The notes beneath the pieces are model-generated. The model did not search any database and had not been told where the DNA came from. It saw only the letters and a program-made list of their open reading frames with translations. 64,000 bases of DNA from IMG/VR virus record IMGVR_UViG_3300026488_000022, positions 16,615 to 80,614 of that record. The stretch is one strand, 5' to 3'. The position numbers and the translations under genes were made by a program. The stretch comes from a virus. Within the stretch, counting starts at the first letter, position 1, and each line of letters begins with the position of its first letter. Positions 6,682-44,353 of the stretch are shown in pieces.

Positions 6682-6689
6682 TATATCAG
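6682..6689 (-). promoter_or_regulatory. Putative late promoter (CTGATATA)
   Basis: 33 bp upstream of the tape measure ATG. Confidence 0.7.
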
Positions 6690-6878
6690 TATAAAATAAA
6701 AGTAAAATTTAATTTAAAAGCTCTATTATAATATATAATAACTTTAAGGGTTTGGACAGTGTTGGACAGTAACAAAAAGCCCTAAAATTCGGACTTTTAA
6801 CAACTTGCAAACATTTATAATCAGTAAAAAATATCATTTGGGCGGTCAAGAACATTTTATAATTTTTGTAAAAAACTC

Positions 6879-6907
6879 TTGACATAAAGTTAAAAGTGTT
6901 TTATAAT
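6879..6907 (+). promoter_or_regulatory. Consensus sigma70 (early) promoter
   Basis: TTGACA(6879-6884)-17 bp-TATAAT(6902-6907), then AAGGAG RBS. Confidence 0.9.
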
Positions 6908-6938
6908 TCTTAGCATAAAACAAAAAACAAAAGGAGAA

Positions 6939-7331
6939 TTGAAAATGAAAACTACATTTATAAACACAAGAGCAGATTTAGAAAAAATGCTAAAAGAAAC
7001 AAACAAAGAACTTGCTCTTAAATACTTAGAAATATTTAAAAATAGAATAATTTGGGGACAAGCTGAAAAATTTGACAATAATTATTATATAGACATTACA
7101 TTATTTGAAGACACTGATAGCATAAAAAGAGTTAAAGTATCAAAACCAATATTAGAAAATTCAGAGGATGTTCAAAGGTTTATTATGTTTTGTCTTGATG
7201 AAAAAGATTATATTCATTATTCGAATATAATCACTGATAAAAAACTAATAGGTTTTATAAATGAATTTTATTTAGACTTAATCTCTTATCACCATTTAAA
7301 AGATGAATTAACAAAGGAAAACAATGAATAA
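6939..7331 (+). CDS. Hypothetical cassette cargo protein
   Basis: 130 aa ORF behind the cassette promoter/RBS, antisense to the structural genes. Confidence 0.75.
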   Translation: MKMKTTFINTRADLEKMLKETNKELALKYLEIFKNRIIWGQAEKFDNNYYIDITLFEDTDSIKRVKVSKPILENSEDVQRFIMFCLDEKDYIHYSNIITDKKLIGFINEFYLDLISYHHLKDELTKENNE

Positions 7332-11136: not shown

Positions 11137-11147
11137 CTTAAAAAATT

Positions 11148-11288
11148 CTATTATAATATATAAATAACTTTAAGGGTTTGGACACTTTGGACAGTAACAA
11201 AAAGCCCTAAAATTCGGACTTTTAACAACTTGCAAACATTTATAATTAGTAAAAAATATCATTTCGGCGGTCAAGAGGTTTTTATAAA
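11148..11288 (+). repeat. Dispersed cassette repeat, copy C (core only, no promoter or cargo)
   Basis: ctattataat...aagggtttggacactttggacagt...cggcggtcaaga. Confidence 0.95.
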
Positions 11289-18871: not shown

Positions 18872-18902
18872 TATAAATCCTTTTAATAAATGTATTTACT
18901 TA

Positions 18903-18910
18903 TATATCAG
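18903..18910 (-). promoter_or_regulatory. Putative late promoter (CTGATATA)
   Basis: 32 bp upstream of the ATG at 18871. Confidence 0.7.
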
Positions 18911-19169
18911 TATAAAATAAAAGTAAAATTTAATTTAAGAATTCTATTATAATATAATAATAACTTTAAGGGTTTGGACACTTTTGGACAGTAGCAGAAA
19001 GCCCTAAAATTCGGACTTTTAACAACTTGCAAACATTTATAATCAGTAAAAAATGTCATTTCGGCGGTCAAGAGTTTTTTATAATTTTTGTAAAAAACTC
19101 TTGACATAAAGTTAAAAGTGTTTTATAATTCTAAGCATAAAACAAAAAACAAAAGGAGAATTGAAAATG
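18903..19169 (+). repeat. Dispersed cassette repeat, copy D (full)
   Basis: Near-identical to copies B and F. TTGACA 19101-19106 / TATAAT 19124-19129. Confidence 0.95.
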
Positions 19170-24611: not shown

Positions 24612-24629
24612 TTATATTACTCTTATAAA

Positions 24630-24721
24630 AAATTTTAAAATTTTTGTAAAAAACTCTTGACATAAAGTAAAAAATATTTTATAATTCTAAATGTAAAACA
24701 AAAAACAAAGGAGAAAATATG
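24630..24721 (+). repeat. Dispersed cassette repeat, copy E (sigma70 promoter + RBS part only)
   Basis: tttttgtaaaaaactcTTGACA(24657-24662)-17-TATAAT(24680-24685)..aaacaaaggagaaaatATG. Confidence 0.9.
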
Positions 24722-25288
24722 GCAACAATTAAACAACTTGGAGAAATTAAAGTAGTAGAAATTAGAGGGGTTGGAGAAAACATCTCCGACGAAACTAAAA
24801 GAATTTTTTTAAGTAAAAGTGGGTTAAAAATAATTGAAGAATATGAAAGAACAAAAGAAAGCAATCCTGAGGAAGCACCAAGCTGGGAAGATGTTATTAA
24901 CAAGCTTGAACTTTATTTTAACAAAAACAACAAACCTATTTTAACTGCTAAAAAAGATAAAACAAAAATAACAATTAACAAATATATTGAAAGCAGTTAT
25001 AGGGGAACTTCTTATATTGAAGAAACAAGTGAAGGAGTTACAATAGTTAGCGCAACAGGTGCTGGAAGACTTGGTGAGCATACTGAATTTATTGCTACTA
25101 TACCAGAAGGATGTTATGTTATTGTTTATAGTGGTGGGAGATATCACAAAGGTTGGACTTGTTTTAAAAATGTAGAAGGAGAACTTAAAACTTATGAATT
25201 TTACAATAGAGGCAAATATGTAGAAAAACCTGATTATGAAGACGCTAAAATAGCTTTTGGATTAATGGATTGTGCTTGTGAAGATTAA
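24719..25288 (+). CDS. Hypothetical cassette cargo protein
   Basis: 189 aa, antisense to the late operon, behind the cassette promoter. Confidence 0.8.
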   Translation: MATIKQLGEIKVVEIRGVGENISDETKRIFLSKSGLKIIEEYERTKESNPEEAPSWEDVINKLELYFNKNNKPILTAKKDKTKITINKYIESSYRGTSYIEETSEGVTIVSATGAGRLGEHTEFIATIPEGCYVIVYSGGRYHKGWTCFKNVEGELKTYEFYNRGKYVEKPDYEDAKIAFGLMDCACED

Positions 25289-25291
25289 TTT

Positions 25292-26650
25292 TTACACGAC
25301 CTGAATTTGTAAATTTTGCAATTTCCACCACCCACTTGTTAAATACCTTAAAGCACCTACGGACAAATCAAAATGTCCGTCCTTGTTTCTTTCTATTGTT
25401 TTTCCATTGCTATTTTCTTTCCAATGAGCTAATTTTAATTCTTCAATCAATTGCATACAATTTTCTGATATGAATAATTTTCCTTTTTGAAATGCCGTGT
25501 TAATGTCCCTAATGCTTTCTACTAATTGAATTGGTGCGGGTTGTGTATAGTAACTATAACTATACGCCATATCTGCCATTGTCAAACTTGCACTTGGGTC
25601 ACAAAATCTTACAATCTGCATATCAGGATTTTCACAATATCTTTGTTCTATTTCTCTAAAATGTTTAATGTGCCATTCAATAGGCATTTGCCCCGCCATA
25701 TATTCATCTAAAACATAAATATTACCAGTCATTGGCTCTATCCAAGCCATAACAAAACTTGTATTGTCCCTAAAACCAATATCAATTCCTACTGCAAACG
25801 TATCTTTTGTTGTCATTTTATTTTTTAAATCACTAACTCTAAATACATTTTTTTCTAAATCAAAAGCATAAAATACCTGCAAATCCTCACTAAACCCACT
25901 TTGAAACTCACATAAATATTCTTGTTCAAAACTTCTTTTATCAAGTTTTGCTTTTATTGACTCAATCATTTCTTTTGTTATCATAGGATTATCATAAACT
26001 GTAACTTTTTTACAAAAATAATCGTTTCTTTGCCCACATCTTTTCCATAACTTATAAAAATCATTATCAAAAGTTCTTGGTGTTCCTATAAAATAAGTTT
26101 TAGAAAACATAAAGCCGTTTTCATCAGTACCATAATCGTTTTGTGCTGGTGAAATGTAGGTTTCCCAAATTTCAAGAACATTATTTATACTCGCAGTTTC
26201 ATCAAAAATAACTAAACTGAATTTATCTCCAAGTGCATTTTCATAATTTTTTTCTGTAACTACACGAAATTTAGCACCATTTTCTAATGTAAATGTTAAA
26301 CCTTTCATATCCTTTGATTTAAAAGGTAATTGTAGTTTATTTACATCTTTTTCAACATTACTAAAAATAGCTTGTGCATTTGCAAATGTAGGTGTTACTA
26401 ATAATATACTTGCATTAGGAATTAAAAGTTCTGACAATGCAATTTTTGACATAATTGTAGATTTACCTGCCCTTCTTGACATTAAAAAAACACCAACATT
26501 AAAATCAGCTTTTTGTATCCTATCAATTATCTCTTGTTGATATTTTGTAGGTGTAAATTCTAACAATTTTAATACTTTATTATAATCAATTTTTCTTTTT
26601 ACTTTTTTATAAAGTTCTATTTCTTGATTTACAGGTTTAAATTCTGACAT
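25292..26650 (-). CDS. terL: Terminase large subunit
   Basis: SRRAGKS Walker A, VIFDE Walker B, GTP coupling motif, FEQEYLCEF, GIDIG nuclease motif. Confidence 0.95.
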   Translation of the reverse strand: MSEFKPVNQEIELYKKVKRKIDYNKVLKLLEFTPTKYQQEIIDRIQKADFNVGVFLMSRRAGKSTIMSKIALSELLIPNASILLVTPTFANAQAIFSNVEKDVNKLQLPFKSKDMKGLTFTLENGAKFRVVTEKNYENALGDKFSLVIFDETASINNVLEIWETYISPAQNDYGTDENGFMFSKTYFIGTPRTFDNDFYKLWKRCGQRNDYFCKKVTVYDNPMITKEMIESIKAKLDKRSFEQEYLCEFQSGFSEDLQVFYAFDLEKNVFRVSDLKNKMTTKDTFAVGIDIGFRDNTSFVMAWIEPMTGNIYVLDEYMAGQMPIEWHIKHFREIEQRYCENPDMQIVRFCDPSASLTMADMAYSYSYYTQPAPIQLVESIRDINTAFQKGKLFISENCMQLIEELKLAHWKENSNGKTIERNKDGHFDLSVGALRYLTSGWWKLQNLQIQVV

Positions 26651-26685
26651 TAAATCTTCCTTTTTAATAGATTGTAATTTTAAGT

Positions 26686-26693
26686 TATATCAG
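26686..26693 (-). promoter_or_regulatory. Putative late promoter (CTGATATA)
   Basis: 36 bp upstream of the terL ATG. Confidence 0.7.
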
Positions 26694-26946
26694 TATAAAA
26701 TAAAAGTAAAATTTAATTTAAGAATTCTATTATAATATAATAATAACTTTAAGGGTTTGGACACTTTTGGACAGTAGCAGAAAGCCCTAAAATTCGGACT
26801 TTTAATAACTTGCAAACATTTATAATCAGTAAAAAATGTCATTTCGGCGGTCAAGAACATTTTATAATTTTTGTAAAAAACTCTTGACATAAAGTAAAAA
26901 ATGTTTTATAATTCCAATACAAATAAAAACAAAGGAGAATAAAATG
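26686..26946 (+). repeat. Dispersed cassette repeat, copy F (full)
   Basis: Near-identical to copy D. TTGACA 26884-26889 / TATAAT 26907-26912. Confidence 0.95.
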
Positions 26947-27408
26947 GAATATAGCGTAATAATAAATCTAACTCAACATAAAGCAACTGAAGAACAAAAA
27001 CAGGCAGGTGTGATAGACCTGCCAGAAAAATATCAAACAAAATTAAGAACACTTTTAACGTTTAATGAATTACCAAATTGTAAAGAAATCACTAATAGAG
27101 CTGAAAAAATAGGAGATTTAGTTTTAGAATTTTTATCAGATAATTTAAGTCCTGTTAAAAACGAAGTTGAACAAATTTTAAAATTAGATGAAATTAAACA
27201 AATTGAAGAATTTGAAAAACTAAATTTAGGTTTTATGATAGGTGGAGCGCCTTATCTTATGGGCGCTTTAGAAGAAGAACTAAGTTATTTTGGGACACCT
27301 TTATATGCCTTTACAAAAAGAATTGTAGAAGAAATAAAAAAATCAGACGGAACAGTAGAAAAGAAAGCAATATTCAAACACGAAGGCTTTGTTCCTGCTT
27401 GTATTTAA
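26944..27408 (+). CDS. Cargo protein resembling Csx20/CARF-like ring nucleases
   Basis: INLTQH.AT.EQ..GV.DLP, MIGG and PLYAFTKRIVEE...DGTVEKKAIFKH.GF motifs. Confidence 0.55.
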   Translation: MEYSVIINLTQHKATEEQKQAGVIDLPEKYQTKLRTLLTFNELPNCKEITNRAEKIGDLVLEFLSDNLSPVKNEVEQILKLDEIKQIEEFEKLNLGFMIGGAPYLMGALEEELSYFGTPLYAFTKRIVEEIKKSDGTVEKKAIFKHEGFVPACI

Positions 27409-27932
27409 TCTTTTATAACTTGATTTAAAATATTGACAAAAACATTTCCTGTTGTTCCTAATTTTTTTCTTTCTTCTTCTTTCATAATATCATCAAGCAT
27501 TTTAGCTACATCTAAAATATCTTTGTCAGTAGCATTAGCAAAATCACCTCCTTGTTTTTCAATTTGTTCTATTTTATCTTCTAATGTTCTCATAACAACA
27601 GAAACTACAACATTTTTAGCATTTTCTTTTATTTCTTTCATAATTGCATTATAAAAATCTTTAACATAAGGTTTTGATAAAGTTCTACTAATATATTGAT
27701 ATGGCAAACCAAGTTCAATTGCTATTCTTTTATTGCTATAACCTTTTGCTTTCATTTCTACAATATATCTTTCAACTGTTGATAAAGGTTTATCGAAATT
27801 AACATTTGTAAATTCTAAAACTTCAGTAGAAACTTTATTGTTTTTAACATTAGCGTCTGGTAAATTTTCTAATTCTTCTTTTTCTACAACTGCCACAGGA
27901 GTTATTTCTTTAGTTTCTTTATTCTTCATCAA
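27405..27932 (-). CDS. terS: Terminase small subunit (HTH)
   Basis: GYSNKRIAIELGLPYQYISRTL HTH plus coiled coil, upstream of terL. Confidence 0.65.
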   Translation of the reverse strand: MMKNKETKEITPVAVVEKEELENLPDANVKNNKVSTEVLEFTNVNFDKPLSTVERYIVEMKAKGYSNKRIAIELGLPYQYISRTLSKPYVKDFYNAIMKEIKENAKNVVVSVVMRTLEDKIEQIEKQGGDFANATDKDILDVAKMLDDIMKEEERKKLGTTGNVFVNILNQVIKD

Positions 27933-28507: not shown

Positions 28508-28540
28508 CTTTTAAAACCTTTATATTTTAATGTTATTAAA

Positions 28541-28548
28541 TATATCAG
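28541..28548 (-). promoter_or_regulatory. Putative late promoter (CTGATATA)
   Basis: 34 bp upstream of the holin ATG. Confidence 0.7.
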
Positions 28549-28707
28549 TATAAAAATAAAAGTAAAATTTAATTTAAAAAACTCTATTATAATATATAAA
28601 AACTTTAAGGGTTTGGACACTTTGGACAGTAACAAAAAGCCCTAAAATTCGGACTTTGTTGATAACGTAAATTAAATTTTAGTTGTTTTTTGTTAATTTC
28701 GGCGGTA
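28541..28707 (+). repeat. Dispersed cassette repeat, copy G (core, degenerate right end, no cargo)
   Basis: Core intact to ~28657. A remnant atttcggcggt at ~28697-28707 lies inside the 3' end of the next ORF. Confidence 0.9.
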
Positions 28708-32170: not shown

Positions 32171-32192
32171 TTTAATATATAAGCTATAATAA

Positions 32193-32374
32193 TTATAAAA
32201 TGTTCTTGACCGCCGAAATGCTATTTTTCATTGTTTGTAGATAATTATAGTTTGTTAAAAGTCCGAATTTTAGGGCTTTCTGCTACTGTCCAAAGTGTCC
32301 AAACCCTTAAAGTTATAATATATTATAATAGAGCTTTTAAAACAAAATTTTATTTCTATCTTTACTTTTATTTT
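32193..32374 (-). repeat. Dispersed cassette repeat, copy H (inverted), upstream of the Rep-like gene
   Basis: Reverse complement of the core: tcttgaccgccgaaatg...gtccgaattttagggctttctgctactgtccaaagtgtccaaacccttaaagtt...tattataatagagctttt. Confidence 0.92.
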
Positions 32375-39429: not shown

Positions 39430-39450
39430 CGTTTAGTAGGTCACATTGTA
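39430..39450. repeat. 21 bp inverted repeat arm (partner at 41461-41481)
   Basis: cgtttagtaggtcacattgta vs reverse complement cgtttagtagggcatattgta (19/21). Confidence 0.75.
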
Positions 39451-39505
39451 GCTTATATTTTCATTGCAAGTAGCTTATATTTTCATTGCAAGTAGCTTAT
39501 ATTTT
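39448..39505. repeat. 22 bp tandem repeat x2.6 (iteron-like)
   Basis: gtagcttatattttcattgcaa at 39448 and 39470, partial at 39492. Confidence 0.9.
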
Positions 39506-39923: not shown

Positions 39924-40331
39924 TTAATTAATTCTGTAAATAAAAAATATTTTATCATCTACTATAAATTCTCTTTCTTCGCTGTCATAAGGAGCAAGGA
40001 TACTCCCTGCTCCGTCTGACAGCAAAACATCCTCAATCCAGGCCTCTACATCTATGTAATATTGTAGAGGCTCTGGGACTTCTGGAGCATAACACTCTTC
40101 ATAAATTTCAGATAGTTTGTCTTTCGCAAACTCTTTAACAGCATCATAATTATCAAAAATTAGAAATTGACGACAACTGCAATCAGTGAAGAGATAATTA
40201 CTTTTTTCATAAAATCTACAATTTTTTATTTCTTTTGTAGGTATTTCAAAAACTTTTGCTAAATTTTTTAAATCTTCTCTACTTTTAATGTTAAAAAACT
40301 CTATAATTTCTTTAAAAGTTAATTCTTTCAT
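39924..40331 (-). CDS. ArdA-like acidic protein (candidate anti-restriction DNA mimic)
   Basis: EVPEPLQYYIDVEAWIED resembles the ArdA C-terminal EIP..L..YIDYEA motif. Acidic, in an early operon. Confidence 0.5.
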   Translation of the reverse strand: MKELTFKEIIEFFNIKSREDLKNLAKVFEIPTKEIKNCRFYEKSNYLFTDCSCRQFLIFDNYDAVKEFAKDKLSEIYEECYAPEVPEPLQYYIDVEAWIEDVLLSDGAGSILAPYDSEEREFIVDDKIFFIYRIN

Positions 40332-41019: not shown

Positions 41020-41059
41020 ATTATAAAATATTTTTTACTTTATGTCAAGAGTTTTTTAC
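41020..41059 (-). promoter_or_regulatory. Cassette-type sigma70 promoter (promoter-only repeat copy)
   Basis: TTGACA(41048-41043)-17-TATAAT(41025-41020), same flanks as copy E. Confidence 0.9.
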
Positions 41060-41209: not shown

Positions 41210-41301
41210 CTATTACCGGTTTTTCAGCAGATTTTGAAAAGTTTATTTCTAATTTCTATTACTGGTTTTTCAGCAGATTTTGAAAAGTTTATTTCTAATT
41301 C
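41210..41301. repeat. 46 bp tandem duplication
   Basis: ctattac(c/t)ggtttttcagcagattttgaaaagtttatttctaatt at 41210 and 41256. Confidence 0.9.
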
Positions 41302-41727: not shown

Positions 41728-43098
41728 TTAAGAAGAACTTTTTAAGGGATTTTTAGTAATTACTAAATCCTCAAAATTATCTGCTTTATCTTTATCAACT
41801 CTAAACTCTTTAAATCTTGGAAAGTCCATAACTAATTGCTTTTCTTTATCTGCATTTATTATACAATATAAATCTGTATAATAAATTTCTACAAGTTTTC
41901 CAATTAATTTGTTTCCGTCAAGTTCTCTAATTTCATCAGTTAATCCGCTTCCTACTTTGATTTCAAATTTTTTATCTTCTGTTTGGCAAATAAATCCACC
42001 TATTTTACCTTTATATTTTCCTTCACCTTCAAACCAATCTACAATTTTTAAAGTGCAACTTTCAAGTCCTTTATATTTAATCCATTTTTTACTTCTTTTT
42101 TTCTCATAAACTCCACTTAAATCTTTAAGCATAATCCCTTCACCATTTTTATTTCTAATTTCATCAAAAAAATCTTTAACTTGTTTAAAGTTGTCACACA
42201 CAAATTGCTCAACTAATTTAATAAAATTTTTATCGTTTGAATTTTTGACCCCCCTTAAATTTTGACCCCCCTTAAATTTTGACCCCCCTAAAATACGCTC
42301 AAGTCTAACCCGCCTATCTTTCAAGGGCGGACAGTAGGATTTAAGATTATTCCACTCTCTAATTGTGAGATAATCAAAACAATAAAAACTAAGCTCTTGT
42401 TTTTCTTGTTCTGTTGCAGTTTCTTTTAACACTTTATTAACTAAACCGCTTGTTTCTTGTCTTGTGTTTGCAAGTAACTCACCGTCATAATAGCCGTCAG
42501 GTTTATTTTTTAATTCATCAAAAATGTGTGGTAAATTCAAAACACTACCGTTATAAGTAACTGCATTTATTTCATTTTTGTTTTTATAAATAAGACATCT
42601 TACACCGTCTAATTTTTCTTCTACTGCAACAGGAAATTTAATCTCATTAATATCAATTTTATTTAAATCATATGCTTTCATAATTGTTGTATCAGGGATA
42701 AATTCATAACCTAATGCCTCATTTATTAATTTAACTTTAACTCCAATTTTTAATTTTTTAGTTAAAATATCTTGATAATATTTACCTTCTATCCCACAAT
42801 TAGACAAAAAACTAATTACTTTAGTTTCAATTTCTTTGCTTTTACCTTTTACTTTACTGATATTATCTATTACATTTAAAAAAACTTTTGGAGGCATAAT
42901 GAAGCCTCCGTGTTTATAAGAAATTTCTGGTAGTTTTTTTATATGTGTATTTATAAAAGGATTAATAAGAATGTTTAACAAATCAAGAAAATAAGGATAC
43001 TCCTTATTTTCTCTAATAATTTCTATTTTTTTATTTTTAGATTGTGTCATTAAGAGTTTGTTAAAACCTTCTATCCATTTAAAATTTTCTTTTTTCAT
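41728..43098 (-). CDS. lig: ATP-dependent DNA ligase
   Basis: EEKLDGVR motif I, DGELL, EGIMLK, KVGSGLTD, FPRF. Confidence 0.95.
   Translation of the reverse strand: MKKENFKWIEGFNKLLMTQSKNKKIEIIRENKEYPYFLDLLNILINPFINTHIKKLPEISYKHGGFIMPPKVFLNVIDNISKVKGKSKEIETKVISFLSNCGIEGKYYQDILTKKLKIGVKVKLINEALGYEFIPDTTIMKAYDLNKIDINEIKFPVAVEEKLDGVRCLIYKNKNEINAVTYNGSVLNLPHIFDELKNKPDGYYDGELLANTRQETSGLVNKVLKETATEQEKQELSFYCFDYLTIREWNNLKSYCPPLKDRRVRLERILGGSKFKGGQNLRGVKNSNDKNFIKLVEQFVCDNFKQVKDFFDEIRNKNGEGIMLKDLSGVYEKKRSKKWIKYKGLESCTLKIVDWFEGEGKYKGKIGGFICQTEDKKFEIKVGSGLTDEIRELDGNKLIGKLVEIYYTDLYCIINADKEKQLVMDFPRFKEFRVDKDKADNFEDLVITKNPLKSSS
42243..42293. repeat. 17 bp x3 tandem repeat within the ligase gene
   Basis: ttttgaccccccttaaa at 42243 and 42260, with a near-identical third copy at 42277. 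Confidence 0.92.
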
Positions 43099-44313: not shown

Positions 44314-44353
44314 ATTATAAAACATTTTTTACTTTATGTCAAGAGTTTTTTAC
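44314..44353 (-). promoter_or_regulatory. Cassette-type sigma70 promoter (promoter-only repeat copy)
   Basis: TTGACA(44342-44337)-17-TATAAT(44319-44314). Confidence 0.9.

Follow-up and report, generated by a model that had tools for sequence, protein, structure and literature searches.

A candidate ring nuclease of the Csx20/MJ1673 family encoded in the terL-terS slot of a hydrothermal-vent phage

A small gene located between the terminase genes of an uncultured phage from hydrothermal vents encodes a protein, P0001. As judged from its sequence, this phage protein belongs to the Csx20/MJ1673 family, in a stand-alone form. We favour, with moderate confidence, the view that P0001 acts as a dimeric cA4 ring nuclease, which the phage would use to blunt type III CRISPR signalling, and a counter-defence role of its gene is probable. 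The gene itself, its family membership and conservation, the variability of its slot and the sequence of its promoter are established here; the ligand of the protein, its catalysis, the timing of its expression and this role we infer from the evidence presented below.

The DNA analyzed (the window; 64,000 nt, G+C content of 26.6%) comprises bases 16615-80614 of an IMG/VR virus record of 80,614 bp, which carries direct terminal repeats. An earlier note on this DNA had claimed an ORF at 26944-27408, lying between terS and terL. The ORF exists on the plus strand, and the matches of its flanking genes to Terminase_6N and phrog_3802 confirm its location:

26944..27408, plus strand: Csx20-like (MJ1673 family) gene encoding protein P0001 (154 aa)
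25292..26650, minus strand: terL, terminase large subunit (Terminase_6N, E = 2.8e-10)
27405..27932, minus strand: terS-like HTH protein (phrog_3802, E = 1.6e-6)

The P0001 gene is antisense to both of its neighbours, and its stop codon overlaps that of the convergent terS-like gene by 4 nt. The terL product is distantly T5-like, sharing 25-27% identity with those of cultured T5-like phages. The locus is a phage structural and packaging region and is neither within nor beside a type III CRISPR-cas locus; no tRNA gene or CRISPR-like array was found in the window, and no Cas10-palm match in the whole 80.6-kb record. A blastn search with the P0001 gene region gave no match among 50,697 cultured phage records. 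Near-identical, intact pieces of the gene are present in public runs from three studies, all of which, where labelled by organism, are hydrothermal-vent metagenomes.

The resemblance to Csx20 pointed out in the earlier note proved to be far beyond chance. It is seen in (i) the match of P0001 to the NCBIfam model CAS_Csx20 (NF040559; E = 1.5e-8, 35 bits), (ii) the match to the PADLOC Csx20 models (E = 1.7e-8) and (iii) the precomputed Pfam label PF27247.1, carried by P0001 and by 120 of the 120 relatives listed (224 were returned from a large protein collection). In the ESM Atlas, PF27247 is named "MJ1673" and occurs in 83-97% of the members of the clusters nearest to P0001, which are 60-79% viral. 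NF040559 is an equivalog model of 124 positions with a curated cut-off of 70 bits. P0001 reaches half of this value, its alignment covers 32 C-terminal residues (118-149, model positions 90-121), and a six-frame search of the phage record with the same model gave 29.3 bits; on this score, the P0001 branch lies outside the curated Csx20 equivalog. In the alignment constructed for the family (A1, 36 sequences), 34 of the sequences match NF040559 (best E = 7.8e-14). Since some cellular relatives are aligned with the model across positions 2-121, the homology spans the full length of the protein.

The other sequence searches with P0001 gave no match: local Pfam-A returned no family at E values up to 1 (the set searched does not include PF27247), the PHROGs returned nothing, and the PDB sequences returned nothing for either the single sequence or the profile. 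The DUF1874 domain of AcrIII-1/Crn2 was not found by the Pfam search. The statement of the earlier note that this established viral ring nuclease has a different fold agrees with the literature. Among the control genomes, only that of M. jannaschii exceeded the NF040559 cut-off, and none did among 301 and 251 sampled genomes of two phyla. The family as a whole is large: a profile made from A1 collected 2507 representative clusters at E ≤ 0.001, including 873 at E ≤ 1e-30. In some of its members (P0121, P0122, P0013 and others; 261-668 aa), two or three MJ1673/Csx20 domains are fused in tandem; these are covalent pseudo-dimers and recall the relation of SAVED to CARF.

Residues N8, T10, Q11, H12, Q18, G22, V23, F40, P44, G100, G101, A102, F123, R126, K140, F144, H146 and G148 (P0001 numbering) are invariant in A1, and E130 is nearly so among the 36 sequences. 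The motifs from which a Csx20-type protein had been proposed, NLTQH, FMIGG and PLYAFTKRIVEEIKKSDGTVEKKAIFKHEGF, are all present and correspond to invariant columns (N8, T10, Q11 and H12; G100, G101 and A102; F123, R126, K140, F144, H146 and G148); the spacing between EQ and GVIDLP, given as two residues, is in fact three (KQA). On the basis of conserved His, Arg and acidic residues, a ring-nuclease function had been predicted for Csx16 and Csx20 (Makarova 2020, as cited in PMC8284326). The invariant H12, R126, H146, K140, T10 and Q11 are compatible with the kind of catalysis predicted there. In P0001 and its closest relatives, about 30 additional residues (roughly 65-93), which are helical and include a conserved Ser-Pro, form an insertion that the usual family members of 120 aa lack.

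AlphaFold2, run with A1, gave an alpha/beta model of P0001 (mean pLDDT of 96.8) with strands at residues 5-8, 23-25, 95-99, 118-132 and 138-151 and helices between them. Foldseek found no match in the PDB at E ≤ 0.001; its weak top rows include the CARF domain of Cad1 and the SAVED domain of Cap4. When the top 1000 chains were rescored, many of the structural neighbours were CARF or SAVED sensors of cyclic oligonucleotides, with modest Z scores (Cam1 CARF, 5.5; SAVED-CHAT, 5.3; Cap5 SAVED, 5.2; Csm6, 4.5; the ring nuclease Sis0811, 4.0; a viral SAVED ring nuclease, 4.0; Sso2081, 3.5). The unbiased fold search was topped by generic racemase-type domains, and the fold matches were middling; such scores fit a CARF-like derivative of the Rossmann fold, short of proof.

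Modelling also predicts that P0001 is a homodimer with a shared ligand site. The prediction of the homodimer with two AMP molecules scored 0.79, versus 0.00 for the best of three controls, with 100% agreement of contacts among the three runs and a partner pLDDT of 90. Among the calibration proteins, 20 of the 30 solved as one-chain pairs and one of the 23 solved as single chains came up to this mark, counts that apply roughly here because a custom alignment was used and AMP was included. The predicted interface includes residues 40-44, 99-104, 121-125 and 147-153, placing it at or next to two invariant motifs, TF..LP and IGGAP, and the hairpin at the C-terminus (R126 and H146).

Relatives of P0001 are encoded at 187 IMG/VR loci and at 64 loci in species-representative genomes of highly diverse bacteria and archaea. 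Most of the genes found within two positions of the cellular homologues have no Pfam family, and four of the 148 belong to Cas families (two Cas_NE0113, one Cas_APE2256 and one Cas_Csy2). A match to Cas10-palm2 is present somewhere in 18 of the 49 cellular genomes with a homologue, at 90 bits or more in 11 of them; since PF22335 also matches E. coli among the control genomes, the weak matches may not represent Cas10. The rate of 18 in 49 looks high against the approximately 1000 type III loci per 40,000 genomes reported in print, a rough comparison as the datasets differ. In a Campylobacteraceae MAG (L112:3617-10363) the homologue directly follows Gam among the early genes of a Mu-like prophage. 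This prophage encodes a MuA-like transposase, a MuB-like ATPase and Gam, and its contig also has a strong Cas10-palm match, some 1.2 kb outside the start of the locus retrieved.

The position of most cellular homologues away from cas genes, together with the score of P0001 under the NCBIfam cut-off and the middling fold matches headed by racemase-type domains, would suit a small Rossmann-like protein whose role is unrelated to cyclic oligoadenylates and whose similarity to Csx20 reflects shared fold ancestry. We consider this very unlikely, given that the motifs are conserved family-wide, including in members aligning full-length to the Csx20 model, that the Pfam label is identical to that of the CRISPR-linked MJ1673, and that a few of the homologues adjoin CARF effectors (Cas_NE0113 and Cas_APE2256).

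What a Csx20 enzyme does has recently been described by Hoikkala et al. (2025; PMC12409355). Csx20 is a stand-alone ring nuclease of type III systems, found in 80 type III loci, which degrades cA4 fully, does not degrade cA6, and requires a ten-fold greater concentration of enzyme to act on cA3. With Csx20 since established as a cA4 ring nuclease, the assignment of a cA4-directed function to P0001 is better founded than was apparent to the earlier note. The same paper reported Csx20 from the Millard phage set, in five of 28,114 genomes of cultured phages (PMC12409355). Homologues of csx20 occur in operons under the RHH regulator Aca14, where csx20-aca14 has been read, as a suggestion, as cas genes co-opted for counter-defence (bioRxiv 10.64898/2026.07.27.740549). 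No assay of a viral Csx20 was found in the literature searched.

On this basis the following mechanism may be proposed. A strong promoter of the sigma-70 consensus type would let host RNA polymerase transcribe the P0001 gene, probably as infection begins. The product would form a symmetric homodimer, with a pocket lined by the T10-Q11-H12 loop after strand 1 and by the Gly-rich I99-G-G-A-P103 loop after strand 4; the long C-terminal hairpin (R126, K140 and H146) would complete this cyclic oligoadenylate pocket, which would straddle the two-fold axis. Metal-free cleavage would convert the ring bound there, most likely cA4, into linear products, and the loss of this Cas10-made second messenger would leave the cA4-dependent effectors of a host type III CRISPR system silent. 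The reading of P0001 as a cA4 ring nuclease is supported by its family, the conserved residues, the predicted dimer, the viral habit of its relatives, the link to type III systems and the accessory slot occupied by the gene. An anti-CRISPR role of the gene draws its support from context: the variable slot, the strong promoter and the use of that promoter by an operon with an ArdA-like gene as well (see below). Against the reading stand the NF040559 score at half the cut-off with an alignment of 32 residues, the insertion of about 30 residues and the broken copy in a sister phage (see below).

The two extra helices of the insertion, specific to the viral clade of P0001 and its closest relatives, may be an acquired lid that alters the action of the Csx20 scaffold, and this clade might have another or a broader range of cyclic nucleotides (cA3, cA6 or CBASS signals) or act as a tight-binding sponge. 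P0001 could be a non-catalytic sponge, or could prefer cA3, cA6, a CBASS signal or another messenger and so counter a different defence. This we regard as fairly unlikely, though several observations agree with it: the helical insertion with its Ser-Pro could alter the shape of the pocket, the nearest structures include several SAVED sensors of CBASS, Csx20 degrades cA3 too when its concentration is high, and Csx15, a related protein with almost no turnover, was suggested as a possible sponge (PMC12409355). The candidate catalytic His and Arg are nevertheless invariant throughout the family, P0001 included, which exceeds what would be expected for binding alone, and all of the characterized activity of Csx20 is centred on cA4 (PMC12409355).

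The slot between terL and terS differs among related phages. The description of its content as a cassette is upheld by two sister phages, whose terL genes are 93-97% identical to that of the window and which carry other cargo at this site. In phage L040 (terL 93% identical) the slot contains two extra small ORFs followed by a broken Csx20-like copy (L040:6001-6465, plus strand), which is interrupted by an in-frame stop at codon 38 and frameshifted after codon 55. The 85 differences and three gaps of a diverged contig from public run X1 include the deletion of 1 nt at 27104; this deletion matches the lesion of L040, although X1 may be the same sample. In phage L148 (terL 97% identical) the slot is occupied by three unrelated ORFs (215, 225 and 73 aa), and no relative of Csx20 was found in it. 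These ORFs, and a second cassette of the window on the other side of terL, are located as follows:

L148:2918-4693, minus strand: slot ORFs of phage L148, between terL and terS, of no clear family
24649..25288, plus strand: sister cassette with a 189-aa ORF (24719-25288), under the same promoter as the P0001 gene and without a known family

Neither L040 nor a variant co-occurring in run X1 has the 189-aa cassette, which is thus a presence/absence polymorphism; in the variant, position 24629 is joined to 25292 with 10 replacement letters. L040 also carries, in a plus-strand island at another slot, a gene with a PAPS-reductase domain (L040:7694-8419, plus strand; E = 1.5e-12), of which the window has no counterpart.

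Since the copy in L040 is broken, the Csx20-like gene is dispensable there. This dispensability, and the fact that cellular Csx20 serves to switch off signalling of the host itself (PMC12409355), would be in keeping with an active ring nuclease that the phage or lysogen uses for a purpose other than evasion, e.g. to temper growth arrest or abortive responses of the host and keep the infected cell productive. Such a use seems most improbable, as the phage has no Cas10 of its own; moreover, damping of cOA signalling during infection would be counter-defence in practice, so that the two views differ in framing more than in mechanism. A phage-borne cA4 ring nuclease directed against type III signalling remains the reading that we prefer.

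The P0001 gene is preceded by a module comprising a promoter and a leader:

26884..26912, plus strand: sigma-70 promoter TTGACA-17 nt-TATAAT, matching 12 of 12 consensus positions
26856..26943, plus strand: conserved promoter and leader module of the P0001 gene, with GGAG at 26934-26937
26651..26855, minus strand: left half of a two-directional intergenic module (family D1), with a hairpin and promoter-like unit upstream of terL

The GGAG lies 6 nt ahead of the ATG. The module shows 82% identity over 90 nt to that at 24629-24718, and its 27-nt core, AAAAACTCTTGACATAAAGTAAAAAAT, is present in six copies at no more than two mismatches, where none would be expected by chance; about 60 nt around the core are nearly invariant among the six, and no further copies were found in the rest of the genome:

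6871-6897, plus strand: promoter copy, with ORFs of 130 and 86 aa downstream
19093-19119, plus strand: promoter copy, with a 43-aa basic ORF downstream
24649-24675, plus strand: promoter copy, with the 189-aa ORF downstream
26876-26902, plus strand: promoter copy, with the Csx20-like gene downstream
41030-41056, minus strand: promoter copy of an operon with an ArdA-like gene
44324-44350, minus strand: promoter copy of an operon ending in DNA ligase
39924..40331, minus strand: ArdA-like anti-restriction candidate of 135 aa (Pfam ArdA, phrog_2059)

The ArdA-like protein scores 26.5 bits with Pfam ArdA (cut-off of 27) and matches the anti-restriction family phrog_2059 at E = 2.5e-4. Four of the six promoter units are plus-strand islands of one or two genes within minus-strand structural operons; they are likely to be read by host RNA polymerase, probably early. 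Together, the six copies look like a single regulon made up of accessory genes that may serve in anti-defence. The term "early-expressed", used in the earlier note, finds its support in the perfect sigma-70 consensus of the promoter. Near-perfect tandem repeats are located in and around the two minus-strand operons behind the repeated promoter (39448-39505, 22 nt x 2.6; 41210-41300, 46 nt x 2; 42243-42294, 17 nt x 3.1) and may be iterons or regulatory sites.

In the two-directional intergenic module (260-290 bp; 84-93% identity between copies), a minus-strand hairpin and promoter-like unit is joined with the plus-strand promoter. The copies are located as follows:

6682-6939, 18881-19161 and 26651-26943: two-directional module
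11138-11287, 28521-28657 and 32185-32366 (inverted): partial copies

Two near-identical ORFs of 66 aa, at 18907-19107 and 26690-26890, are spurious products of the module. A cassette in the strict sense, delimited by flanking repeats, was considered and rejected: the P0001 gene has no bounding repeats of its own, and the regulatory modules recur genome-wide. The six-copy promoter may define a dedicated immediate-early anti-defence regulon, with cargo swapped at fixed slots inside the late operon. That both proposals hold together, i.e. an insertion that serves as a function-changing lid and an immediate-early anti-defence regulon of six promoters whose cargo is swapped among vent phages, we consider unlikely.

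Few protein families are, to our knowledge, known to subvert type III CRISPR, and the only proven viral ring nucleases of which we are aware are AcrIII-1/Crn2 and, recently, a viral SAVED protein. A working viral Csx20, if confirmed, would add a further ring-nuclease family to these, and a widespread family (2507 clusters, 187 viral loci) would be largely a weapon of mobile elements and not a housekeeping switch of the host. Hydrothermal vents are a habitat rich in type III systems. The P0001 gene offers a clean natural example, being a single gene with a perfect promoter in a slot that differs among three near-identical phages. Phage Csx20 genes and their counter-defence reading are already in the literature; for this reason, the value of P0001 is that of a candidate for the bench and not of a new concept. 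Two local features merit attention there: the clade-specific insertion and the six-promoter regulon with swappable cargo.

Among known systems, AcrIII-1/Crn2, a small dimeric enzyme with a catalytic His and an established viral ring nuclease, shares with P0001 the proposed action, i.e. fast removal of cA4 that would blind type III CRISPR effectors, but it belongs to an unrelated fold and family, and P0001 has no DUF1874. The Crn1 enzymes (Sso2081, Sis0811 and Sis0455), which are CARF-domain ring nucleases, are also among the closest known systems. In Crn4 (Unk01), which occurs on phages and plasmids, the loop that follows the first strand carries the catalytic His, and a long beta-hairpin reaching across the dimer contributes an Arg (PMC12830947). 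These residues parallel the invariant H12 and R126 of P0001, a likeness for which homology is not demonstrated; Crn4 differs in its mostly beta fold and its broad cOA range. Csx20 itself (NF040559; PF27247) is of the same sequence family as P0001 and is likewise a small single-domain protein; the two have in common the N-terminal T-Q-H, the Gly-rich loop and the C-terminal R/K/H hairpin. A homodimer is predicted for P0001, whose alpha/beta topology may be CARF-like. P0001 departs from Csx20 in its score below the equivalog cut-off, its insertion of about 30 residues and its origin in a phage without cas genes. As with the published csx20 genes of phages and other MGEs, it is a relative of Csx20 on a mobile element that may be read as co-opted for counter-defence. 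Unlike csx20-aca14, the gene forms a single-gene unit with no adjoining gene for an RHH (Aca14) or HTH regulator, and it is distinguished from the published phage csx20 genes by its repeated consensus promoter, its terL-terS slot and its carriage by a vent phage with a T5-like terminase.
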